Shown here: positions 3,270 to 63,324 of the stretch, piece by piece
Numbering within the stretch: the stretch's first letter is position 1
How the letters are laid out: each line of letters begins with the position of its first letter
NCBI GenBank assembly: GCA_951406725.2
Contig: OX597820.1
Coordinates: forward strand, 9,796,001-9,860,000
Source of the DNA: Octopus vulgaris
Lineage: Eukaryota
DNA: 64,000 bases
Direction of reading: 5' to 3'
Notes under the pieces: model-generated
What the model saw: only the letters and a program-made list of their open reading frames with translations
Told to the model about the DNA's origin: nothing
The model's database searches: none
Position numbers and translations under genes: made by a program

Positions 3270-3680
3270 AGAATAACAACAACAACAACAACATTGGAAG
3301 CACTCCGTCGGTTATGACGACGAGGGTTCCAGTTGATCTGATCAACGGAACAGCCTGCTCGTGAAATTAACGTGTAAGTGGCTGAGCACTCCACAGACAC
3401 GTGCACCCTTAACGTAGTTCTCGGGGATATTCAGCGTGACACAGAGAGTGACAAGGCCGGCCCTTTGAAATACAGGTACAACAGAAACAGGAAAGAAAGA
3501 GTGAGAGAAAGTTGTGGTGAAAGAGTACAGCAGGGATCACCACCATCCCCTGCCGGAGCCTCGTGGAGCTTTTAGGTGTTTTCGCTCAATAAACACTCAC
3601 AACGCCCGGTCTGGGAATCGAAACCGCGATCCTATGACCGCGAGTCCGCTGCCCTAACCACTGGGCCATTGCGACTCCAC
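3270..3680 (-). mobile_element. SINE B head + tail 1, ending in an (AAC/TTG)n tract
   Basis: Reverse complement of 12380-12760; inverted relative to the adjacent 2725-3088 copy. Confidence 0.85.
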
Positions 3681-8680: not shown

Positions 8681-8724
8681 GGACCTGAAGAGTGCATAGT
8701 TTAATGCATGAAAGTACTAGCTCA
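8681..8724 (+). ncRNA. Minimal type I hammerhead ribozyme-like motif
   Basis: CTGAAGA core, stem II GTGCAT/ATGCAT, GAAA, palindromic stem III AGTACT + A; stem I degenerate. Confidence 0.65.
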
Positions 8725-12379: not shown

Positions 12380-12760
12380 GTGGAGGCGCAATGGCCCAGT
12401 GGTTAGGGAAGCGGACTCGCGGTCATAGGATCGCGGTTTCGATTCCCAGACCGGGCGTTGTGAGTGTTTATTGAGCGAAAACACCTAAAAGCTCCACGCA
12501 GGGGATGATGGTGATCCCTGCTGTACTCTTTCACCACAACTTTCTCTCACTCTTACTTCCTGTTTCTGTTGTACCTGTATTTCAAGGGGCCGGCCTTGTC
12601 ACTCTCTGTGTCACGCTGAATATCCCCGAGAACTACGTTAAGGGTACACGTGTCTGTGGAGTGCTCAGCCACTTACACGTTAATTTCACGAGCAGGCTGT
12701 TCCGTTGATTCGGATCAACCGGAACCCTCATCGTCGTAACCGACGGAGTGCTTCCATCCC
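12380..12760 (+). mobile_element. SINE B head + tail 1 with 11-bp TSD, nested in an older minus-strand SINE A (about 12345-13145)
   Basis: TSD AAATTGCAGTC at 12369-12379 and 12761-12771; A box tggcccagtgg, B box ggtttcgattcc. Confidence 0.9.
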
Positions 12761-17776: not shown

Positions 17777-18075
17777 ATGGAGGCGCAATGGCCCAGTGGT
17801 TAGGGCAGCAGACTCGCAGTCGGAGGATCGCGGTTTCAATTCCCAGACCAGGCGCTGTGTGTGTTTATTGAGCGAAAACACCTAAAGCTCCAGGAGGCTC
17901 CGGCAGGGGGTGGTGGCGACCCCTGTTGTACTCTTTCACCCCAATTTTCTCACCCTTTTTCTTCCTGTTTCTTGAGTAGGACTGGCGTCCCGTCCAGCGA
18001 GTGGGGAACACATACGTCACAGAAACCAGAAAACCGAGCCCATGAGCCTGGCTAGGATTGAAAAAGGCGCATAAA
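17777..18075 (+). mobile_element. SINE B head + tail 2
   Basis: Colinear with 45465-45765. Confidence 0.85.
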
Positions 18076-24800: not shown

Positions 24801-24849
24801 TATTTAAATCTGTTATGTTAAATGTGTTCATTATTATTTTCTCTTTATC

Positions 24850-25341
24850 ACAGGTTTTGTTGACAACTCATTCGGAATTGCAAGACACTGTATTCGAATT
24901 TCATTTTTCAAATCTTCAATTGTCACTGGTTTTGCAGCGTAAACCTTATCTTTGAGATGTCCCCATAAAAAAAATTCCGTTGGCGTGAGGTCTGGGGAAC
25001 GTTCAGGAAATTCAACGCCACCTCTCCTCCCAATCCATTTGTTTGGATTTGTCAGTTATCGAGCTGTGGGTGGGGGACAAACACAAACACGCATGCGTAT
25101 TATATATGGTGGGCTTCTTCACAGTTTCCGCCTACCGAATTCACTCACAAGGCATTAGTCGACTCGGGACTTTAGCAGAGGGCTAAACCCGAAACCATGA
25201 TTTTGCAAAGGGATCTTCTTAATAATACAGTCATATCTGCGACTCATACAAAATTAAAGTCTTTACTTGTGTACTACATGAAAAATCCGACAACACGGGA
25301 TATGCTGTCAAAGAGTGAGTACATCTTTTTGGGACACCCTG
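24850..25341 (-). mobile_element. Tc1/mariner-superfamily remnant: 5' TIR + 256 bp of captured host DNA + transposase C-terminus
   Basis: rc of 24850-25050 encodes PNKWIGRRGGVEFPERSPDLTPTEFFLWGHLKDKVY (WPPRSPDLTP.DFFLWG motif); TIR TA|CAGGGTGTCCCAAAAAG at 25341. Confidence 0.75.
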
Positions 25342-29640: not shown

Positions 29641-30292
29641 ATATATACATTACAAATATAAAGTTATATCTTGAGTGACCAAGATATATGATATATTTAT
29701 ATATTATATATTATATATTATATGATATATTTATATATTACTAAACTTTTAAATTTTTAAACGTCGGGCTTTATAGATATAAATGAATATATGAATATGT
29801 GTATGTGTTTGATCTTTCTGTGGATTTTGTAATGTTCCTTTAGTTGTTGCTCGCATTGCCTCCCCTCGGATAAAAAAATATGTATATATACATGCATATA
29901 TGGGTGCAGGGCATCAAAAAAACGTTGAACACAATGAGAAACGAAAACATAAAAACCAAAACATAGAATGCCTTCGAAACGTGGAGTAGATGAAACAGGG
30001 ACAACTGAAGAAGGGGACTATTCTTTATGTTGTATGTCTCGTTTCTCTGTTTTTTTCGTTGTCCGAAAAAAAGTTCGTTTCTATGTTTTTGTTTTTATGT
30101 TTTCGTTTCTCATTGTGTTCACCGTTTTTTTGATGTCCTGTATCCATATATGCATGTATATATGTAGATGTTGGTACGTACATATATGTATGTATATATG
30201 CATATATTTATATATTATTTATATTATTATATGATCGAACGCCTCGCATCCTTTTCCAAGTAAGTTTTATCATACAAATATATACCAATATA

Positions 30293-31181
30293 TGTGGTCT
30301 GATTAATAAGTATCTGCACTGTTACCACAATAACAAAGCTAAAGCACAGAGATTAAAGCCGCTCGGCACAGACTGACCTTAAATTCTGCTGTGCACGCGC
30401 ACTAAGTTTTAACGGTCTAGTTGACCTCCGCTATTTGCAGCAGTGTTTGAAAGGAAGGTGTGTAGCATGTGATCGTCGCATTCACCATGAGAGAGAAAGC
30501 TGAGCAGAGAACATGCATCAAATCGCCAAAGACTTGGCGATTCCTACTCAGAGGCCTACGTAAAGTTTTCAAAAAGTTTTCATCGTTCTCGATACAGTCA
30601 AGGAGATCTTGTACGACTGAAACCCGAGTCTTTTGGGTCGGCTGAAAGTAGTTTTGGCACAAACTTGGCAGACACATGTCCCATACCCAAATCTTCAGCG
30701 ATAATGGACTGAACTGAACCGTAACTAATCTGCACATCCTCTGATAACTCACGGATGGTGATTCGACGATTTCCCCTCACAGCTGCATACACATCTGCGA
30801 TGTTTTTCTCAGTTCTGCTGGTTGCGGGTCTCCTGAACGTTCGTCAATATTGAAATTTTTTTGCCATCTTGGAAACATCTGAACCGCTCGTACACCTGTG
30901 TGCGGCTCATACACTCCTCTCCATACACTTTCTGCAACATTGCGTAGGCCACTGACCACGTATCGCCATGACAACTTTCTCTGCCATGGTCAATGCGACG
31001 ATCACACGCTATACACCTATCTTTCAAGCATGGCTGTAAACAGCGGAAGTGAGCTAGAGCGTTAAAACTCAGTTCGCATGCACAGCAGAGGTCAAGGTCA
31101 GTCTTGGCCAAGTGGCATTACTCTGCATGATTTAGCTTCTTTGTTGTGGCAACAGTACGGATACTTATTAATCAGACCTCG
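30293..31181 (-). mobile_element. Non-autonomous mariner built from two inverted 5' ends, with HTH-region transposase remnant
   Basis: TA-flanked TIRs (cgagg/tgtgg)tctgattaataagtatc; minus frames give AYAMLQKVYGEECMSRTQVYE..FQDG, ERSG, RRITIRELSEDVQISYGSVQSIIAEDLGM..VSAKFVPKLL. Confidence 0.9.
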
Positions 31182-31186
31182 TATAA

Positions 31187-31276
<90 letters not shown>

Positions 31277-32027
31277 CGCGCGTCTATGGATAATCGGATA
31301 TTGATTGATTTTCGTTACGTTACCCTCTGCCTGTGTGAGTAACCTTCAAGTATAATGGTTTCTCTGGAAGACCTTTTTAAAGTAGAAGAAATGGCTAAGA
31401 TTTTTGGCTGCTATTTCTGAACTTCGGTGTGTGGTGAGGCAATTCTTTGCTGAACCCTTTATATATATATATATATATATATATAACACACACACTTTTT
31501 TTTATCCGAGGGAGGCAATGCGAGCAACAACTAAAGGAACACTACAATATCCACAGAAAGATCAAACACATACATATATTCATATATTCATTTATATCTA
31601 TAATATATTTATATATATAATATATTTATATTGATATATTTATATATTACTAAACTTATAAAGTTTTTAAACGTCGGGCTTTATAGATATAAATGAATAT
31701 ATGAATATATGTATGCGTTTGATCTTTCTGTGGATTTTGTAATGTTCCTTTAGTTGTTGCTCGCATTGCCTCCCCTCGGATAAAAAAAGTGTATACTGCT
31801 CATGAGAGCACTACTATTTCCAGTCCGTTGTATATCTTGAGCGTTGTTGTCACTCAAGATATAACTTTATATTTATATAACTTTATATATATATATATAT
31901 CATGTTTTCTGTGTTCGTCCCTTTGTGTATTTCCCGTTCTTGTTTCTTTATATATAATTTTTATTCCTATATATCAGCGGTGGTGCCCCAGCATGGCCGC
32001 AGCCTTCGGACTAAAACATTTTAAAGG

Positions 32028-32078
<51 letters not shown>

Positions 32079-32685
32079 CATGCACACATACATACATTTA
32101 TTGAATGTTCTTCCTAGAGGTAAGACAGATTTTTCATGTTTGTTGTTGCACTCACACGTCTTTGCCAGTATATACGCAGTGGAACTTTACCATAGCATCG
32201 TGTTTGTATCGACTGCTATTTCTAGTAAGTATTGGTGCCTTGTTGTACCACTCATCTGTATTTATATTTATACTTCTACCCTTATGGGACTTTATTTTAC
32301 TGGAAAGTAATACATTTGTATTGCAATATTTTATTTTTCATTGAAAACTTTTTCCCTGTTCTCGTTCTGTCAACGTTTAAGAGTTCAGGCATGTATACTG
32401 GCATTGATGTAGCAACTTTTGAAATATTGTCTAGGTAAATGCAGCACAGGATGACGGATCAAATTTACGTTGACAAACGTATTTGAAGAGTCTGAAACTT
32501 AGGTATTGCATTATCCAATTCTGGGTTGTCCATTTATCGAATGTTCTTCCTTGAGTTAAGACAAAGTTTTCATGTTTGTTGCACTCAGGCGTCTTTGCCA
32601 GTATATACGCAGTGAAGCTTTACTAAGCGTCGTATTTGTATCGACTGCTATTTCCAGTAAATGTTGGTGCCTTGTTGTACCAATC

Positions 32686-33015
32686 ATCAAACTCAACTGG
32701 ACGTCCTGTTCGATCTTCATCTTCAAGGCTGAAATCTCCACTTCTGAATTTTGCAATCCATCTTCTGCAAGTTCCTTCATTCAAGCATTCTTTCCCATAA
32801 ACTGAGTGTATGTTTCGAGTCGCTTCAGCTGCAGTTTCCTTTTTTGTACTCATAAAGCATTATGTACCTCAAATGCTCTTTGGATACTTCTATGTTAGAA
32901 AGGGTTTTAATCAAAGAAATTTTTATTCTATTATTCAGTAAAATAATATTTAATTAGTTTAAATGCACACAAATGCATAAAAATAATTTTTAATTCCATT
33001 AGACATTCAAATGCT
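32686..33015 (-). pseudogene. Second mariner transposase N-terminal fragment (Hsmar1/Mos1-type HTH), frameshifted
   Basis: AAEATRNIHSVYGKECLNEGTCRRWIAKFRSGDFSLEDEDRTGRPVEFDD; 2-bp deletion relative to unit 2. Confidence 0.85.
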
Positions 33016-33145
33016 AAACTAATACATCTGTTTGTTGTCTACACCACCTGTCATTGTCTTTTGTTTTTTTTTTGTGAATTCTCCCCTATATAAATATGTA
33101 TGTATGTATACGTAAATACATACATACATACATACATACATACAT

Positions 33146-33200
<55 letters not shown>

Positions 33201-33204
33201 CATA

Positions 33205-33510
33205 TATATCACCGTGATCACCGTGACCGATCAGGCTATCAGATGTTGCTACACATCGCTGGTCACAATGCGTTTCGCATTGTTTTAGCCTTCAAATGAC
33301 GCCACCCCGCTGGCTAAGCGAGCAGACCAACAGAAGAAAGAGTGAGAGAAAAGTTGTGGCGAAAGAATACAGCAGGGATCGCCCCGTCCCCCCCCCCCCG
33401 CCGGAGCCTCGCTCAATAAACACACACAACGTTCGGTCAGGGAATCGAAACCGCAATCCTACGACCGCGAGTCCGCTGCTCTAACCACTGGGCCATTGCG
33501 CCTCCACACA
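33205..33510 (-). mobile_element. SINE B head + tail 3 (duplicate at about 37160-37458)
   Basis: B head (rc gtggaggcgcaatggcccagtgg); tail shared with 51370-51490. Confidence 0.75.
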
Positions 33511-34266
33511 CACACACGCACACACACGCACACACACACACACACACACACAGACATATATATATGAATGTATGTATGTGCTTGTGCGTTCGTGTGTGTA
33601 ACGTTTGTAATATATATAACGAATACATATATTGATATATGGATATTAATGTCTCGAAAGCGCTCAATAGCAAAAATGTGAATAATATATATTTGTAAAT
33701 CTAGATTGTTGCTTGCAGCATATTTAAATATTTAATTTAACAGACATCACGTACATGCACATACATGCACGAACGCACACAAACACACATACTCACAGAC
33801 ACACGAAAACACATACATACACAACCCTCCACCACACAGACACCCGCGCAGATATGTATATATACATGCATATATGGGTGCAGGGCATCAAAAAAACGTT
33901 GAACACAATGAGAAACGAAAACATAAAAACCAAAACATAGAATGCCTTCGAAACGTGGAGTAGATGAAACAGGGACAACTGAAGAAGGGGACTATTCTTT
34001 ATGTTGTATGTCTCGTTTCTCTGTTTTTTTCGTTGTCCGAAAAAAAATTCGTTTCTATGTTTTTGTTTTTATGTTTTCGTTTCTCATTGTGTTCACCGTT
34101 TTTTTGATGTCCTGTATCCATATATGCATGTATATATGTAGATGTTGGTACGTACATATATGTATGTATATATGCATATATTTATATATTATTTATATTA
34201 TTATATGATCGAACGCCTCGCATCCTTTTCCAAGTAAGTTTTATCATACAAATATATACCAATATA

Positions 34267-35154
34267 TGTGGTCTGATTAATAAGTATCTGCACTGTTACC
34301 ACAATAACAAAGCTAAAGCACAGAGATTAAAGCCGCTCGGCACAGACTGACCTTAAATTCTGCTGTGCACGCGCACTAAGTTTTAACGGTCTAGTTGACC
34401 TCCGCTATTTGCAGCAGTGTTTGAAAGGAAGGTGTGTAGCATGTGATCGTCGCATTCACCATGAGAGAGAAAGCTGAGCAGAGAACATGCATCAAATCGC
34501 CAAAGACTTGGCGATTCCTACTCAGAGGCCTACGTAAAGTTTTCAAAAAGTTTTCATCGTTCTCGATACAGTCAAGGAGATCTTGTACGACTGAAACCCG
34601 AGTCTTTTGGGTCGGCTGAAAGTAGTTTTGGCACAAACTTGGCAGACACATGTCCCATACCCAAATCTTCAGCGATAATGGACTGAACTGAACCGTAAAT
34701 AATCTGCACATCCTCTGATAACTCACGGATGGTGATTCGACGATTTCCCCTCACAGCTGCATACACATCTGCGATGTTTTTCTCAGTTCTGCTGGTTGCG
34801 GGTCTCCTGAACGTTCGTCAATATTGAAATTTTTTGCCATCTTGGAAACATCTGAACCACTCGTACACCTGTGTGCGGCTCATACACTCCTCTCCATAAA
34901 CTTTCTGCTGCATTGCGTAGGCCACTGACCACGTATCGCCATGACAACTTTCTCTCTCATGGTCAATGCAACGATCACACGCAATACACCTATCTTCCAA
35001 GCATGGCTGTAAACAGCGGAAGTGAGGTAGAGCGTTAAAACTCAGTTCGCATGCACAGCAGAGGTCAAGGTCAGTCTTGGCCAAGTGGCATTACTCTGCA
35101 TGATTTAGCTTCTTTGTTGTGGCAACAGTACGGATACTTATTAATCAGACCTCG
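34267..35154 (-). mobile_element. Duplicate of the double-5'-end mariner
   Basis: Same structure in duplication unit 2. Confidence 0.9.
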
Positions 35155-35252
<98 letters not shown>

Positions 35253-35429
35253 CGCGTCTATGGATAATCGGATATTGATTGATTTTCGTTACGTTACCCT
35301 CTGCCTGTGTGAGTAACCTTCAAGTATAATGGTTTCTCTGGAAGACCTTTTAAAGTAGAAGAAATGGCTAAGATTTTTGGCTGCTATTTCTGAACTTCGG
35401 TGTGTGGTGAGGCAATTCTTTGCTGAACC

Positions 35430-35460
<31 letters not shown>

Positions 35461-35971
35461 ACACACACTTTTTTTATCCGAGGGAAGATCAAACACTAAA
35501 TACACAGAAAGATAAACACATATATTCATATATTCATTTATATCTATAATATATTTATATATATAATATATTTATATTGATATATTTATATATTACTAAA
35601 CTTATAAATTTTTAAACGTCGGGCTTTATAGATATAAATGAATATATGAATATATGTATGCGTTTGATCTTTCTGTGGATTTTGTAATGTTCCTTTAGTT
35701 GTTGCTCGCATTGCCTCCCCTCGGATAAAAAAGTGTATACTGCTCATGAGAGCACTACTATTTCCAGTCCGTTGTATATCTTGAGCGTTGTTGTCACTCA
35801 AGATATAACTTTATATTTATATAACTTTATATATATATATATATCATGTTTTCTGTGTTCGTCCCTTTGTGTATTTCCCGTTCTTGTTTCTTTATATATA
35901 ATTTTTATTCCTATATATCAGCGGTGGTGCCCCAGCATGGCCGCAGCCTTCGGACTAAAACATTTTAAAGG

Positions 35972-36026
<55 letters not shown>

Positions 36027-36635
36027 CATGCACACATACATACATTTATTGAATGTTCTTCCTAGAGGTAAGACAGATTTTTCATGTTTGTTGTTGCACT
36101 CACACGTCTTTGCCAGTATATACGCAGTGGAACTTTACCATAGCATCGTGTTTGTATCGACTGCTATTTCTAGTAAGTATTGGTGCCTTGTTGTACCACT
36201 CATCTGTATTTATATTTATACTTCTACCCTTATGGGACTTTATTTTACTGGAAAGTAATACATTTGTATTGCAATATTTTATTTTTCATTGAAAACTTTT
36301 TCCCTGTTCTCGTTCTGTCAACGTTTAAGAGTTCAGGCATGTATATACTGGCATTGATGTAGCAACTTTTGAAATATTGTCTAGGTAAATGCAGCACAGG
36401 ATGACGGATCAAATTTACGTTGACAAACGTATTTGAAGAGTCTGAAACTTAGGTATTGCATTATCCAATTCTGGGTTGTCCATTTATCGAATGTTCTTCC
36501 TTGAGTTAAGACAAAGTTTTCATGTTTGTTGCACTCAGGCGTCTTTGCCAGTATATACGCAGTGAAGCTTTACTAAGCGTCGTATTTGTATCGACTGCTA
36601 TTTCCAGTAAATGTTGGTGCCTTGTTGTACCAATC

Positions 36636-36965
36636 ATCAAACTCAACTGGACGTCCTGTTCGATCTTCATCTTCAAGGCTGAAATCTCCACTTCTGAATT
36701 TTGCAATCCATCTTCTGCAAGTTCCTTCATTCAAGCATTCTTTCCCATAAACTGAGTGTATGTTTCGAGTCGCTTCAGCTGCAGAGTTTCCTTTTTTGTA
36801 CTCATAAAGCATTATGTACCTCAAATGCTCTTTGGATACTTCTATGTTAGAAAGGGTTTTAATCAAAGAAATTTTTATTCTATTATTCAGTAAAATAATA
36901 TTTAATTAGTTTAAATGCACACAAATGCATAAAAATAATTTTTAATTCCATTAGACATTCAAATG
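36636..36965 (-). pseudogene. Duplicate of the second mariner fragment, HTH in frame but truncated before the catalytic domain
   Basis: ORF 36573-36866 KEHLRYIMLYEYKKGNSAAEATRNI...GRPVEFDD, then unrelated sequence. Confidence 0.85.
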
Positions 36966-37091
36966 CTAAACTAATACATCTGTTTGTTGTCTACACCACC
37001 TGTCATTGTTTTTTGTTTTTTTTGTGAATTCTCCCCTATATAAATATGTATGTATGTATACGTAAATACATACATACATACATACATACAT

Positions 37092-37150
<59 letters not shown>

Positions 37151-38424
37151 CACATATATATCACCGTGATCACCGTGACCGATCAGGCTATCAGATGTTG
37201 CTACACATCGCTGGTCACAATGCGTTTCGCATTGTTTTAGCCTTCAAATGACGCCACCCCGCTGGCTAAGCGAGCAGACCAACAGAAGAAAGAGTGAGAG
37301 AAAAGTTGTGGCGAAAGAATACAGCAGGGATCGCCCCTTCCCCCCCCCCCGCCGGAGCCTCGCTCAATAAACACACACAACGTTCGGTCAGGGAATCGAA
37401 AGCGCAATCCTACGACCGCGAGTCCGCTGCTCTAACCACTGGGCCATTGCGCCTCCATACACACACACACACACACACGCACACACACACACACACACAC
37501 ACAGAGACATATATATATGAATGTATGTATGTGCTTGTGCGTTCGTGTGTGTAACGTTTGTAATATATATAACGAATACATATATTGATATATGGATATT
37601 AATGTCTCGAAAGCGCTCAATATCTTGAGATGAGGTTCGCAAAAATGTGAATAATAAATATTTGTAAATCTAGATTGTTGCTTGCAGCATATTTAAATAT
37701 TTAATTTAACAGACATCACGTACATGCACATACATGCACGAACGCACACAAACACACATACTCACAGACACACGAAAACACATACATACACAACCCTCCA
37801 CCACACAGACACCCGCGCAGACATGTGCCCACGCATATACACAGACGCACCATATAGACTCACAGACATACACGCACAGGCACACCACATGCACATACAT
37901 ACACACGTACACAAAGGTGTTAGGCTTCATGTCTTGCTTAGTTCACGACTCTACTTCGTTACAGGGTCGTAAACAAACCAGCACCGGTTGTTAAGCGGTG
38001 GATTTGTGGAGGTAGACACAAACACATACGCGACATATACAACAGGCTTCTTTATACAATAGTTTCCGTCAACCAAATTCACTCCTATGGCTTTAGTAGA
38101 AGAGACTTGCCCAAGTTGCCACGCAGTGGGATTGAACCTACAACAATATGGTTGCAAGCCGAGCTTCCTGACCACACAGCCATGTCTTATAAGCATCTCA
38201 CATTCAGTATAAAACTGTTAAAGAAATATTTGAATAAATGATTTTTGTATTTCAATTTTAAAGCAAAGGGAAGCGGCTTGGTACCGGGTGTCGGGTGGGC
38301 AGACAAATGATAAATGGAATGGCGCTAAGTGTAGGGTGGCTAGACGAATGCCTTGTGGTATTATTTAGTTAAGTTACATTCCATTCATCGAATAAATCAA
38401 TGGTTTTTCAAAATAATGCGACGG

Positions 38425-45464: not shown

Positions 45465-45765
45465 TGGAGGAGCAATGGCCCAGTGGTTAGGGCAGCGGAC
45501 TCGCGGTCGGAGGATCGCGGTTTCGATTCCCAGACCGGGCGTTGTGTGTGTTTATTGAGCGAAAACACATAAAAGCTCCACGAGGTTCCGGCAGGGGGTG
45601 GTGGTGACACCTGTTGTACTCTTTCGCCACAACTTCTCTCACTCTCTATTCCTGTTTCTTGAGTAACTGTGATGGACTGGAGTCCCGTCCAGCTGGGGGG
45701 AACACCTACGCCACAGAAACCGGGAAACCGGGCCCATGGGCCTGGCTAGGCTTGAAAAGGGAGAC
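45465..45765 (+). mobile_element. SINE B head + tail 2
   Basis: A and B boxes intact; tail ccgggaaaccgggcccatg..cctggctagg. Confidence 0.85.
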
Positions 45766-52396: not shown

Positions 52397-52734
52397 AGTC
52401 GAGATCAACGCATGGTCTCACATCGCTGCAGACCTCGATTCAATTTAGGCGACTCGTTGATGAAGCCAGCCTTAGCAAACATATTCTGTGTTTTGCTAGA
52501 AAGAGGCAGAAACTGATCAGTCCGAGGTGTAAAGTTATCGGTAAACGTTTTTGATTTTCACTCTCGATAAATTCATCTCCCTTTTGTGTTGCCAGCACTC
52601 GGCATCCTAATTTAGGAGCCCTTAATTGTATTACTACATGAATAATATTTTTCTATATGAATAATATTTTGTCCTATGACTAATTCGTCTTTTGTGCTGG
52701 GCACATGGTAGTAACCAATATTACTACCCTTCTT

Positions 52735-52786
<52 letters not shown>

Positions 52787-53630
52787 GCATATGTGTGTGT
52801 GTGCATGTATGTGTCTGTGTGGTGTGTCTGTGCGTGCGTGTATGAAAGTATGTGCGTGTGTATGGTCATTTCTTTATGTGTTTAACTTTACGTACATATT
52901 CACGTTATCTCCAACGGCGACATAACGAACGATGCTGCTCATATGCAAAAACACACACAAACACAAACAAGCAAACAAAAACAGCAAAAAGAAAGGAAAA
53001 AATAGCAAAAAAACAAACAAAAAAGCTTTGATTTACGGATGGTAGAAGATAATGATTTTTGCTGAATACCAATTAATAAAACATTAAAAGCTATTTAATA
53101 TACTACGATTAGAAAAAAAGGCATTTTTTTCACAAATTTATAATCTTTTGTTAACATGCAATAAAATAATAAAATAATAAAATAATAAAATAAATAAAAT
53201 AATGAAATAAATTACAATGGTTTTGCGTAACAAGTTCTTTTAAAGCCATAGAAGCTGAAAGTGTTTGATGTTGTTGCTTTTTAGCCCCAGGCTGGGTTCT
53301 GATCCTTCAGATCTGCCATCTGTAGCAATTTTGTTAGCGACATTCCGCCATTTTGAACATAATTTTCTTCAATCTACTTATCGAAAATGTTCTTTTTAAG
53401 CAAAGAAGTTGGCTGAAATAATTAATTTAATTTAGATATAGGAGTAATAATTTAATTTAGATATAGGAAAATTTTGAGCGGCAGCGTGGTCAGCTGTTTG
53501 CTTACCAACCACATGGTATCGGGTTCAGTTCCACTGCGTAGCACTTTGAGTAAATGTCTTTTACGATAGCCTCGAGCTGACCAAAGCCTTGTGAGTGGAT
53601 TTGGTCGACTGAAACTGAAAGAAACTCGTC

Positions 53631-53685
<55 letters not shown>

Positions 53686-54086
53686 CTGTACTGCCATGTA
53701 AGCTTTGCGTCTGCGCAGAGATTTGAAAAGTTAAGATCTGCTAGTAGTCGAGATCAACGCATGGTCTCACATCGCTGCAGACCTCGATTCAATTTAGGCG
53801 ACTCGTTGATGAAGCCAGCCTTAGCAAACATATTCTGTGTTTTGCTAGAAAGAGGCAGAAACTGATCAGTCCGAGGTGTAAAGTTATCGGTAAACGTTTT
53901 TGATTTTCCCTCTCGATAAATTCATCTCCCTTTTGTGTTGCCAGCACTCGGCATCCTAATTTAGGAGCCCTTAATTGTATTACTACATGAATAATATTTT
54001 TCTATATGAATAATATTTTGTCCTATGACTAATTCGTCTTTTGTGCTGAGCACATGGTAGTAACCAATATTACTACCCTTCTTGTT

Positions 54087-54089
<3 letters not shown>
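52393..54089. repeat. Dispersed ~350-bp direct duplication (52393-52740 and 53742-54089)
   Basis: Near-identical copies, about 2 substitutions seen. Confidence 0.95.
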
Positions 54090-54141
<52 letters not shown>

Positions 54142-54596
54142 TTGTGTCTGTGTGTTTATGTGTGTGTACGCGCACGCAAGTCTTTGTGTCTGTGGGGCAA
54201 CATCCCAGCCATCGCAGGAACTCATTTACAGCTGAGCAATGTGAAATGAAGCGTTTTGTTCAAGAAAACAACGTGCCTACTGGTCATGGAATCGAAATCA
54301 CGATTTTACGATCGTGGGTAAAAGACTCTAACCACTTGGCCATGCTCCTTCACAATGTTACAGTGGGGGTCTGTAAATATGGGGGAAAGTCCATGTCTTT
54401 CGTCGTTTTTTCTTTAATCTTTTCTTTTACTTGTTTTAGATATTAGACTGCGGACATGCTGGAGCATTGCTTTGAAGAAGTTTTCGTCGAATGAATTGCC
54501 CACGGTACTTATTTTTTAAAAGTCTTATGCTTATTCAATTGGCTTCTTTTGCCGAATTGCTAACTTACCGGGACCGATTGTCAAGCGGTGGTGGGG

Positions 54597-55586: not shown

Positions 55587-55661
55587 TTCACGACGAAATA
55601 CCACTGACATCTTGAATTCACTGTATTCTGAGTCGAGTTTACAACGAGATAAGACTAACAT

Positions 55662-55913
55662 CTTACATTATTTACATTATTTACATTCGATGGATATTTG
55701 TCTTCATCTTGTTTGTTGTTAACACATCGTTTCAGTTGATGTATCCTCCAGCCTTCATCAGGTGTCTTGGGAAAATTTCGAACACGATGAAGGCTGGAGG
55801 GTATATCAGCCGAAACGCTGTGTTAACAACAAACAAGATGAGGACAAATATCCGTAAAATGTAAATAATATAAATAATGTAGATAATTCCTCATCTCTTA
55901 AATATAGAACTGT
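55662..55913 (+). mobile_element. Hammerhead-containing retroelement copy with inverted 5' half and 8-bp TSD
   Basis: Inverted arms each carry the HHR (55721-55770 minus; 55782-55826 plus); ACTAACAT at 55654-55661 and 55914-55921; homologous to 59478-59630. Confidence 0.8.
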
Positions 55914-56439
55914 ACTAACATTTTAATTTTACTCTCTCCTGAAAACGTTTCGCTTCCATTATATGTCTAACGTCTTTGTAAAAGGCCTGAATGTTACGGT
56001 TACGAGAATCGCTCCTTTAAAGTTTACGAATAAAAGCTTTCTAGGAGAGAAACAAGGATTTTATTTTAGTGTGTGTTCACTCAAAGACATAATGAAATCA
56101 TACAGTTATAGCAGGAACTGGATATAGAATGTATAGAAACCATATAAGGTAATATTTCTTTAGTTACGATTTTCTAACATCATGGAAAAGTTTGTGATAG
56201 CGAACATTATGGGACGTTATTTTTAAGAATCAGTGTATCGAAACGAACCCGTGTCCTGAAGAGTAAATAAGATTTTCTTTTAGAATTTAATCGTTGGTGG
56301 TGGTCAGTACCTCAAGATTTTCTGGTTTTATTCCTACACATAAATGATTGAGACATTAAAATTAACAGAACTAATTGAAAGACAATGACCGGAGCGAAAA
56401 TATAAACAAGGTTGAGGTTACGGAGAACTAAGTTTGAGT

Positions 56440-56943: not shown

Positions 56944-57289
56944 AGGACAACAAACATTAAGGAAAGGCAAACATCTCGAGTCGTATACAATTTTATTATT
57001 GGAAAAATGTATTTTCCAATAATATTGTATATGGCTTGAGATGTTTGTCTTGCTTTAATGTTTGTTGTCCTCTTTAACAATTATATATCCGCTGCATCGG
57101 AAATCTTCAATGGCTCCATAACTACTGTCTCGGCTATAACCTTGGAACCCCAGTAATCCCTTACACCACTTACCTAACGTACTTAATCATTCAGATCACT
57201 TGTGAACTAAACCCCCGTAATTTGTATACATACATACATACATACATGCATGCATGCATACATACATACATACATACGCACATACATAC

Positions 57290-58050: not shown

Positions 58051-58510
58051 CCATCCATTCATCCATCCATTTTCTTCGCCACTATTCCTAGGAGGGTCGA
58101 AGGAGGAGAGTCCTTAGGGCCCCTCCTTCATCTGGTCCCATGAAAAAGCAGCCGTCATTATATTTACCTGCTGAATTCTCAAGCGTGACCAAATGACAGT
58201 AAGGATATCATCGAACCATCGCGTTCTTGGTCGACCCATTGGTCTCCTGTCAGTTGGCTTCGGCTTGAAGAATCCGCCTTGCGATTCTATCCTGCGACAT
58301 TTTGACCACAGTCCGTCATACTGGAGCTGAGGCCTCTCAATGCAGAGAAGCAGTGGCTTGACATGGAGAGACTCTTTGATCTTTAAGCTTCGCAACCTGT
58401 CGACTAACGTTACTCTAGAGATCCTTGGGCCACTTGTATCAAGTGATCGTATTTTCTCGACCATTACCCAACATTCATGACCAGTGGTGAGAATAGGCAT
58501 GAAAACCGAA
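58051..58510 (-). pseudogene. RTE-clade LINE 3' end, Rex3/Expander-like
   Basis: PILTTGHECWVM...KPLLLCIERPQL...PTDRRPMGRPRTRW; 3' end gaagaaaa(TGGA)n. Confidence 0.85.
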
Positions 58511-59320
58511 ATATTTATTCGTATAATTAATATAATAGCTAATTTTGATGTGTTAATTAAACGTTGGCTTCGGTGATTTAAGCACTTTTTACACAGCTTT
58601 TACCTGCATAGCACATTGCTCATGTCTGTGTTACTGATATTTTGCTTCCTTCTGTAAGCCATCAGCTTTTATGCTACCATGTATTTAAACGATATCACAT
58701 ACTTAGTCGTCTCATTGTATCACCTCTGATAAAGGCTAAAAACGACCAGAAACATGTGTGAATGTTTGACTATCAGGAACGTATTGTGTTTCAGAGATTA
58801 AGTATATTGTATAGATATTTATTTCAATATGTGACTGGATTTTATTTGCAAGCATATGTTCGTATAGAACATCTTACTGTAATGTTTTATATATGATCGC
58901 TCTAAATCATCATTTTCAATTCTGTTAAACCATTTCGATAATTCACTTTTCATAAAAAGTTATTTCTGGTATAACCACGAAATATATCTTCATAAAATTA
59001 CTATGCATGTACACACATATGTATAATATATATAAGTATATGTATACATACACATATATACTTGCATAAATATATAACATACATGCACACACATATACCA
59101 TCGTAAAAATGCATACACACACACACTATGTATATTTACGTATGTATCTCTCTATCTACATACGTACGTATATGTGTGTATGTGTATGTGTGTGTGTGTG
59201 TGTGTCTGTGTGTATGTGTGTGTGTGTGTGTGTAAATGTAGATGCAAGCGTATGTAGATAAGTAATGTTAAAAATTTAGAGTTAGGAAATATAGGAGAAA
59301 ATGAGAATAATATGAGAAAC

Positions 59321-59402
59321 GGGTATATAGCGTAGTGGTTAAGAGCGCGGGCTACTAACCCCAAGATTCAGAGTTCGATTCCAGGCAGTGACCTGAATAA
59401 TG

Positions 59403-59445
<43 letters not shown>

Positions 59446-59630
59446 CATCGAAAAATACCTTAGGAATGAGAACCCAGGTTCGAAATTTCGCAAATACACC
59501 TGATGAAGGCTGGAGGGTATATCAGCCGAAACGTTGTTGTAGCAACAAACAAGATGAGGACAAATGTCCGTCAAATGTAAATAATGTAAATAATGTACAT
59601 TATTCTTCATCTCTTAAAGATAGAACTGTA
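59321..59630 (+). mobile_element. tRNA-derived head + (AAT)n + hammerhead ribozyme + AT-rich tail (candidate ribozyme-bearing SINE)
   Basis: A box TAGCGTAGTGG (59328-59338), anticodon-like arm ggg-CTACTAA-ccc, B box GAGTTCGATTCC (59371-59382), HHR at 59495-59541. Confidence 0.65.
59495..59541 (+). ncRNA. Minimal type I hammerhead ribozyme motif
   Basis: TACAC CTGATGA A GGCTG gagggtatat CAGCC GAAAC GTT GTTGTA: intact core, 5-bp stem II, ACGT palindromic stem III. Confidence 0.75.
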
Positions 59631-60697
59631 CGAATTTATTATTTGGTTAACACTTAAATTACAACATCCTCATTCTACGAAAGATTCATAAATTCATCCA
59701 TATATCATCAAAGTTATTTCAATTTGCTACTTTCAGAATATAATGAATACATACATGTATGTATGTATGTATTCATTATGCACACACACACACACATATT
59801 TTATTCGTGTTTGCGTACGCATGCGTAAATGAGAGTACGCGGACATGTTTTCTATCGTCTTAATGAAAAGCATTTTCCTCCATATTGCTCTGCTAATTTA
59901 CACCAAGTGAATAATTCAGTTCCCACAGGCAGCAACAAGACTTATGAATACACATTTAAAACGATTTTTAGATGATGGAATATGCTACACATTCAAATGC
60001 ATATAATCGCTCCATGAGTGTGCATCTGTGTTGGTATGCATGTGTTAGTGAGTAAATATAATAATAATAATAAAAGCCTGATCGGGTTGGGCGAGTGAGA
60101 GAGATCTTCATAATTCAAAAGCAGTATTTGGCCTCAAGACAAATAGCTTATTAATTTCAGTTAAGATTATTTACGATTTAGCCTGGTAGTCAAGCTGAAA
60201 TCTTTACAAAGGTTAGTTAGCTGAAAATAATTATACATTTAATACAATTTCTGAATAGAACTGAATTTGTGGTAGATCTTAACATGTGATTTACATTTGA
60301 TGTTGGTTTACCGCAGGAAAGTGGAGTTCTTGTATACTTGTATTGTGGTTATCTAAGGTGAAATTGGTTTATACATACATACATACATACATACAATCAT
60401 ACATACATACATACATACATACATACATACATACATACATACATGCATACATACATACATACATTCATACATACATACATACATACATACATACACACAT
60501 ACATACATACACATACATACATACATACATACATACATACATACATACATACATACAGACCAACAGACATATATCTATGTTTGTGTGTGTGTGTGTATGT
60601 GCGCATGTGTGTATGTGTGTATGTAGTTCAACGAAGGCTAGAAGGTCGAAACGCAAAGTCATTATCGTTCCTCTTCTTGTAAAAATATAATAAAATT

Positions 60698-62340: not shown

Positions 62341-63324
62341 TGTACATTTTATACATATATACACATATATGTAATCCATATCAAACTTTACACTGCACTT
62401 ACAGGGAATCGAGTCACCCTGGATCTGTGATCAATGAAAGAATGAAAAGCGTCTCCATTCGAGTAGCTAAATTGTCTGCTAATAAGGAAATGAATATTTA
62501 ACGACAATGCCTGGTATTATAATGCGGCTCGTAAAAGAAGGAAAAAATTACATACATACACAACTTTAGCCCCAAAAGTCACATTAAATATTTGTACAAT
62601 GAAATATTAACACAGATATCTTCAACAGTTAGGCATATAAATTCCATATCCGGTAACTTGAACTACTCTAAAATTGCTAGTTTAAAATGATAATAAATAT
62701 CGTGGTAACTGCAATAATAATAGTTATAAATTCACCACCAATAGTTTTGCTCATAAAAATGGAAATAATAATAAACGAATTTTCCTTTATCTCTTAAACA
62801 TAGAACCCATATTTAACTACGTCCAGTTTTATTTTTCTGACTGTTGGTTGTCTTTATTAATCTTGATCGACAAATTCTGTATGTGATAGTTGATAGAGTA
62901 TCAATTTTTCGTCCTTTTCGTCACCACGAAAATGCGATGATGATGCAGAAAAATTTCTAAGTACTTATCGAGTCTGATATAGATGCAGGCTTTGCACTAC
63001 TTAATCACACTTAAAAATGATAAAAACAGATAATGTTAATGAAACAAATATTCGCACAATAAACGAAAGAAAAAAATGAAAATAATAAATTGATAAAAAA
63101 CAGAAATAAATACTTTAGAAAATAATTTGACTTTTAAGTAAACTGTGTTAGAAAACAAATTTATCCTGGGATTTGAAGAAAATACTTTTGAAGAAATAGA
63201 AATTTTCGGAAGATACATTTTTAGATAAGAGGTGTTAAGAGATTTTTTTATATGGTTGAAGATAAAATTTTCGCGATCATGTATTTATATTTGTTTATAT
63301 GGTGTTTAAAATAGACACATTAAT

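Follow-up and report, generated by a model that had tools for sequence, protein, structure and literature searches.

How do a tRNA-like head, a hammerhead-ribozyme motif and the tail of a Penelope-like element (PLE) come to lie one behind the other in this octopus sequence, and do they move as one? A sequence-only reading of the window (the whole stretch of 64,000 nucleotides analysed here) had located these parts at 59321-59630, where the sequence and our scripts place them as well, with the unit spanning 59319-59630, and had taken them for a non-autonomous, Pol III-type, PLE-mobilised hybrid of SINE and retrozyme. Here, we studied the family through the 64-kb window itself and through the assembled contigs of eight public runs (X1, X3, X7, X9, X13, X14, X4, and X16). 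We find at 59319-59630 a single copy of a very abundant animal repeat in which tRNA-type promoter boxes, a hammerhead-ribozyme motif, and Penelope-type insertion marks come together. Our main reading, to which we give a probability of roughly 55%, is that this repeat is likely the pseudo-LTR of a protein-coding PLE, and that its internal tRNA-type A and B boxes likely give a short Pol III RNA that is copied back uncut into SINE-like copies. From the hybrid originally proposed, the single repeated unit, the PLE marks and the SINE-like fixed start are retained; the purely non-autonomous nature and the self-cleaving retrozyme are not.

The features needed for the argument are listed below in window coordinates, with their strand and the evidence for each.

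59319-59395, plus strand: tRNA-like head with type-2 Pol III boxes (from sequence and loose contig ends); this copy is without the first 4 nt (GCCC) present in other copies
59328-59338, plus strand: A box, fits TRGCNNARYGG (script match); no variant at or above 10% listed in eight runs
59373-59382, plus strand: B box, fits GTTCRANNCC (script match); no variant at or above 10% listed in eight runs
59396-59440, plus strand: (AAT)15 tract with one GAT, part of the family, of varying length (repeat call; loose ends behind the head)
59441-59494, plus strand: conserved spacer (contig comparison)
59495-59541, plus strand: minimal type I hammerhead with palindromic stem III region (scripts); cut predicted after 59535
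59542-59597, plus strand: 3' body, closed by the inner end at which the inverted arm breaks off (55664; window repeats)
59598-59630, plus strand: optional 33-nt PLE "tail" with fixed outer 3' end, carried by the headed copy and the plus arm, missing in the inverted arm
55654-55665, plus strand: target-site duplication on the left of the inverted pair, agreeing with 55914-55925 at 11 of 12 nt
55664-55783, minus strand: inverted, 5'-truncated arm without tail, hammerhead core mutated (window repeats)
55786-55914, plus strand: direct, 5'-truncated arm with tail, starting within the hammerhead core (window repeats)
55914-55925, plus strand: right target-site duplication (repeat comparison)
62757-62806, plus strand: old 3'-end fragment, possibly of another subfamily (78%, E 2e-5)

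With regard to the head, the claim of good A and B boxes holds: 59328-59338 and 59373-59382 fit the strings that we take to be the box consensus (TRGCNNARYGG and GTTCRANNCC), and both are conserved across the runs. By eye, the D arm and an anticodon-like loop (59349-59361) are kept and the T and acceptor stems have decayed; the whole presumably resembles tRNA-Ser. ARAGORN makes 0 tRNA calls on the window, the head included, and Rfam gives 0 matches over the window at gathering score and chance matches only at E<=10, with no tRNA or hammerhead family among them. In line with the suggestion that the head is unrelated to the other SINE heads, it has only the boxes in common with the five others compared, and the window holds a single headed copy, the head being without any other window match at E<=1. 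Seven other A/B-box SINE heads, belonging to other families, lie at 1717-1770, 3615-3668, 12392-12445, 17789-17842, 33442-33495, 38129-38182, and 45476-45529, and heads with only a B box near 2761, 6510, and 51610. From the head onward, the first T4 run on the top strand is found at 59799; its absence before this point says little, because T4 is also absent in 289 of 1,640 background windows and in 50% of 10,000 element shuffles. The head is moreover found in contigs of X4 and X16, and that these two runs are of RNA is a guess only.

Several observations bear on whether head and ribozyme-tail belong together. Of the 24 runs listed, 15, from five organisms, have half or more of the sampled repeat words (X19, X20, and X24, whose word shares are small, are left aside here), and 28,627, 20,588, 23,162, and 22,901 contigs map onto 491 bases in X1, X3, X7, and X9, which come from four studies; the head alone matches 3,822, 4,346, 430, and 405 contigs in X13, X14, X4, and X16. 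Pattern scans of viral contigs and metagenome contigs gave 0 matches. Summed depth, which is not a copy number, has the same order of magnitude on either side of the (AAT)n tract in all four of the former runs (head peak vs just past the tract: 4.07 vs 3.72, 0.59 vs 0.71, 2.94 vs 2.39, and 1.77 vs 0.94 million in X1, X3, X7, and X9). The (AAT)n spacer noticed behind the head is indeed part of the family: beyond the (AAT)15 at 59396-59440, the loose ends that follow the head have the sequence CCTG(AAT)n in all four runs X13, X14, X4, and X16 (agreement 0.63-0.90), and in X4 and X16 they finish in AAC, matching the window copy. Furthermore, 9 of the best 15 of 119 joints connect 59319-59336 with 59477-59567 on opposite strands, every opposite-strand joint among these best 15 falling in the first 18 nt of the head, and the other 6 being skips inside the tail. 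From their coordinates, we infer that these nine joints are inverted tail pieces set against the 5' end of the head. It is thus supported that head and hammerhead-tail form one repeated unit, their collinear linkage outside 59319-59630 being indirect, as contig mapping skips (AAT)n.

The marks of insertion are found at the other end of the unit. Loose ends behind 59630 occur in 119, 145, and 131 contigs of X1, X3, and X7 (agreement 0.40-0.41) and show a fixed 3' end followed by unrelated flanks. Within the window, 59502-59634 matches 55786-55918 at 91%, 59478-59597 matches 55783-55664 on the minus strand at 87%, and 59573-59626 matches 62757-62806 at 78%, the last of which bears out the reported recurrence of the tail end near 62780-62807. 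The recurrence of hammerhead and tail described for 55662-55913 is real too, but it is an inverted pair rather than a single copy, and neither core is intact: U16.1 is changed in both arms, and the plus arm is without C3-U4. At this one locus, the inverted arm ends at the equivalent of 59597, and the direct arm, like the headed copy, goes 33 nt beyond. As to the target duplication, a flush match of 8/9 arises in 0.66% of 20,000 random position pairs; the headed copy at 59319-59630 shows no target duplication. PLE insertions combine an inverted arm, a one-sided tail of 30-40 bp and a target duplication (PMC8557442, PMC3846280, both in part; here and below, "in part" refers to the accessible portion of a source). 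On this basis, the 55.7-kb locus reads as one head-to-head insertion in which the target is duplicated and a single arm bears the 33-nt tail, a combination that is the PLE signature, and the involvement of PLE machinery that had been proposed agrees with these three marks. Judged by its sequence, the family is therefore real, high-copy, and PLE-mobilised, and its unit is predicted to behave, likely enough, as a SINE that uses the Penelope enzyme.

The ribozyme motif raises the question of what a self-cleaving RNA would do between a promoter and a tail. Its core, CUGAUGA from 59500, is followed by one unpaired A, stem II, GAAA at 59528-59531, and then C-G-U-U. The intact CUGAUGA...GAAAC core with a 5-bp stem II that had been announced is found, with five Watson-Crick pairs to which one G-U pair is added. 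The ACGU palindrome of stem III is likewise present but measures 6 nt (59530-59535), and our scripts predict the same cut as the one placed after GUU at about 59535, namely after 59535. A descriptor of minimal hammerheads finds exactly one site in the window, and any match at all in only 2 of 300 shuffled windows; the Rfam hammerhead models give no match to 59495-59541. The shape as a whole (an unpaired base before a 6-bp stem II, G10.1-C11.1, a short stem I, and the palindrome at 59530-59535) agrees with what is described for minimal hammerheads in animal PLEs (PMC4209133, in part). One attractive claim had to be given up, namely that stem I varies between copies and yet stays pairable: the changes at 59495, 59538, 59539, and 59542 are private to the window copy, 91-94% of summed depth in X1 having another letter at these positions, so that the differences are the window copy's own and covariation is ruled out. 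Among the unpaired core positions, N7 (59504), a free position, is the sole one with a variant at or above 10% in four runs, and the other variants listed nearby (59527, 59532, and 59533) all fall on CpG sites and are changes of C to T or of G to A. This pattern of variants suggests that the source elements kept the hammerhead core. For the monomer, folding prediction prefers another structure (the best alternative, at -10.1 kcal/mol) to the hammerhead (-8.2 kcal/mol), and no clear dimeric hammerhead emerged when two copies were co-folded freely. Elsewhere in the window, a possible second and unrelated hammerhead is seen at 8685-8713 on the plus strand (CUGAAGA...GAAA enclosing a short hairpin and followed by a palindromic GUAC); it failed the minimal descriptor.

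At the 5' side, loose ends before 59319, 59321, and 59325 define three head variants, all of which carry (T)GCCC; the start of the family is therefore placed 4 nt upstream of that of the window copy, that is, 13 nt before the A box and at a T-G step. Pol III would initiate at such a step. Before 59321 and 59325, the loose ends consist of AT-rich noise, then (T)GCCC and a few letters (agreement 0.42-0.59), and among the best-supported loose ends listed, most head-bearing contigs have one fixed start immediately ahead of the boxes, which is how SINE copies would begin, the proportions being rough. The picture is one of many dispersed short copies with a fixed 5' start and of a minority that extends upstream. 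For the 59319 variant, which is the window copy's own, at least 30 nt of upstream sequence are common to a minority of copies in five of the six runs with a 59319 row, so that the assumption of an element that is non-autonomous only is not supported. Counted by eye, the 30-letter upstream consensus agrees with that of X16 at 28, 25, 24, and 21 of 30 positions in X9, X13, X14, and X7, and at 10 of 30 in X4, where the row before 59325 carries the same upstream motif. An agreement of 0.45-0.57 in the 59319 rows would mean, by a back-of-envelope estimate, that roughly one copy in five extends. A longer element thus exists, known from these 30 letters only, and most head-bearing copies begin at the head. 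Head variants with little upstream extension are as common as the extending one (91/57/83 contigs in X13 and 128/53/100 in X14). In the window, the upstream motif has 4 one-mismatch matches vs 5.3 expected, which is chance level.

Four other explanations have to be set against the main reading. That an unrelated SINE head and a PLE fragment came to be neighbors by chance at a microsatellite is scarcely credible; the head does stand on only one of the four tail-bearing window segments, and no bridging contig is displayed since mapping skips (AAT)n, but other copies have the head followed by (AAT)n and AAC, depth matches on both sides of the tract, and the nine joints of head to inverted tail recur among the best 15 of 119. 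Very improbable, too, is the retrozyme originally favored, an RNA that self-cleaves, circularises, and is copied from circles in the manner of schistosome Sm-alpha. The intact core, the palindromic stem III, the Sm-alpha precedent (PMC6765202, in part), and the derivation of animal retrozymes from PLE pseudo-LTRs (10.64898/2026.07.22.740005, in part) would all suit it, whereas the window holds no tandem or permuted copy and none of the best 15 of 119 joints leads from the 3' end back to the head, so that the defining feature of such an element, the tandem unit, is missing. Nor do the loose ends listed point to the cut: they fall at the start of the head and at 59588-59630, and what follows at 59537 and 59543, close to the cut, is simply further family sequence. 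The fold energies given above disfavor the monomeric ribozyme as well, and copies with both promoter and tail must derive from uncut RNA, because cleavage would separate the head from the tail.

The two remaining explanations, both of which we consider unlikely, deserve more weight. In one, a separate chimeric SINE arose when a tRNA-derived head became fused to a PLE 3' end, the pseudo-LTR of that PLE itself being headless, and the upstream extension is a non-coding longer subfamily. That most loose-end rows listed start sharply ahead of the A box, that the boxes are conserved, and that our protein searches gave no ORF is what one would expect of it, and SINEs often have tails in common with their partner element (PMC4758252, in part). 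It is at odds with the upstream 30 letters, which recur in five runs and are attached to the head variant of the window copy. In the other, the copies are ordinary 5'-truncated PLE ends, and the boxes are the relic of a SINE or tRNA piece that Pol III does not use. The fixed 5' end could equally be a pseudo-LTR boundary or a stop of the reverse transcriptase without Pol III, all insertion marks are of PLE type, most PLE copies are truncated (PMC4209133, in part), the T4 evidence is weak, and neither ARAGORN nor Rfam calls a tRNA. Three observations go against such truncation: the boxes are conserved though the cloverleaf stems have decayed, the head variants that extend little are no rarer than the extending one, and the start falls at a T-G step 13 nt upstream of the A box, where Pol III would be expected to begin.

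If the repeat is, as we favor, the pseudo-LTR of a coding PLE, the sequence upstream of the head would be the 3' end of the PLE body. Pol III would initiate at the G of the TGCCC motif and transcribe through the unit, the top strand having no T4 run before 59799; the PLE protein would then bind the 3' part of this RNA, and reverse transcription would begin at two internal sites 33 nt apart, as for PAc of the anole, with the back-to-back arms arising from a second, inverted product. The minimal hammerhead is predicted to be inert as a monomer and to cut only as a dimer or with protein; it would be a passenger in short copies and function, if at all, in tandem full-length transcripts. In anole PAc, the ribozyme indeed cuts only with protein, uncleaved RNA is the dominant insertion substrate, and the tail is the interval between two internal starts of reverse transcription (PMC11167929); a ribozyme between promoter and tail is therefore no paradox. 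As to the origin of such an arrangement, one possibility, against which we would lean slightly, is that an autonomous Penelope acquired a tRNA-type Pol III promoter in its pseudo-LTR, which thereby became a true SINE lineage with its own source copies, that is, a SINE from inside its own helper, with a PLE and not a LINE as its mover. The full PLE might be driven from this promoter as well, the ribozyme then setting the 5' end of an uncapped message.

A coding PLE calls for a reading frame. From an ATG at 59466, a frame runs through ribozyme and tail; it stays open over 63 codons in the headed copy, remains open in the inverted arm, and has a single break in the direct arm. This frame is a candidate start of the PLE ORF, which would fit PLE ORFs that begin in the ribozyme region, as in anole PAc (PMC11167929; see also PMC3846280, in part). 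Reading the 317 ORFs of the window by eye revealed no evident PLE ORF, and protein searches that used three frames of the element in translation, aimed at spurious ORFs across (AAT)n or at a PLE N-terminus, returned no PLE protein. A profile-free protein search gave 8 matches at E<=0.001, three of them unrelated; the other five (P0005-P0009) look like spurious translations of related tails, from more distant hammerhead-tail relatives that show further subfamilies. A continuation of P0006 and P0007 into a head was considered and rejected, their head-only scores not being significant (shuffle p 0.22 and 0.46). The best score in the ESM Atlas was 0.80, with no family.

Other features of the window are of a different nature. 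The minus-strand frames 30417-31117, 34391-35090, 32623-32859, 36573-36905, and 24834-25055 read like decayed mariner/Tc1-type transposases, and the 161-aa minus-strand frame 58114-58599 reads like the C-terminus of an RTE-type LINE protein. Two nearly identical neighboring stretches of about 4 kb (about 29750-33300 and 33730-37250) repeat ORFs and the motif at 30005 and 33979, and may be a tandem duplication or an assembly artefact; another local duplication, with near-identical ORFs, covers 52440-52925 and 53789-54446. A near-perfect hairpin of 90 nt at 56962-57053, a chance match to a microRNA model, is possibly a small inverted-repeat element.

From the perspective of earlier work, papers that mention octopus SINEs, Penelope bursts, or squid hammerhead counts contain no such element in their accessible portions (PMC8967140, PMC6962438, PMC10886601, PMC4758252), and our full-text literature searches yielded neither a PLE-mobilised, tRNA-headed element in cephalopods nor a Pol III promoter in a pseudo-LTR. 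Repbase and Dfam lie outside this search, and existing repeat libraries could already list the family under a SINE or a Penelope name. Repeat annotations may miscount this family, which is very abundant in the genome group and falls between these two labels. SINEs are known to travel with LINEs as their passengers, and a Pol III-type head on the cis-elements of a PLE would extend this partnership to the telomerase-related enzymes of PLEs; if so, it would show a direct route for the birth of a SINE from the end repeat of its own helper. The unit also offers a natural template of 315 nt that carries every PLE cis-element, useful for asking whether the hammerhead matters in insertion and how inverted arms form.

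Among known systems, tRNA-derived SINEs, which in octopus include OK, OR1, and OR2, reportedly those of Ohshima and Okada in 1994, are like our repeat in their 5' A/B-box head, fixed start, and high copy number. They end in a LINE tail or poly(A), whereas the octopus repeat ends in a PLE ribozyme and tail and can be inserted as inverted pairs; OK, OR1, and OR2 are compared here by description. Schistosome Sm-alpha and Sj-alpha likewise unite a Pol III-type promoter and a type I hammerhead in one short non-coding repeat (PMC6765202, PMC8490949, both in part). However, Sm-alpha, as described in these portions, is tandem, with a canonical active ribozyme that releases monomers, whereas the octopus repeat has a minimal ribozyme, is dispersed or head-to-head in the copies seen, and ends at PLE tail ends instead of the cut site. 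Animal non-LTR retrozymes are also non-coding, hammerhead-bearing, about 300 nt long, and linked to PLEs (PMC7229834; 10.64898/2026.07.22.740005, both in part), but are defined by tandem units and circular RNA and have no tRNA head in the text searched (0 mentions of tRNA or promoter in the accessible portion of 10.64898/2026.07.22.740005). The pseudo-LTRs of EN+ PLEs, such as anole PAc/Poseidon (PMC11167929) and Adineta Pen2a (PMC3846280, in part; see also PMC4209133, in part), resemble the octopus repeat in their minimal type I hammerhead, the bulged base before a long stem II, the palindromic stem III, the inverted 5'-truncated arm, the one-sided tail of 30-40 bp, the target duplication, and the open frame through ribozyme and tail. 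What sets the octopus repeat apart from them is the promoter: those described for PLE pseudo-LTRs are TATA/Inr-like (Pen2a, PMC3846280, in part), whereas the octopus repeat has A and B boxes, with many copies starting just before them.
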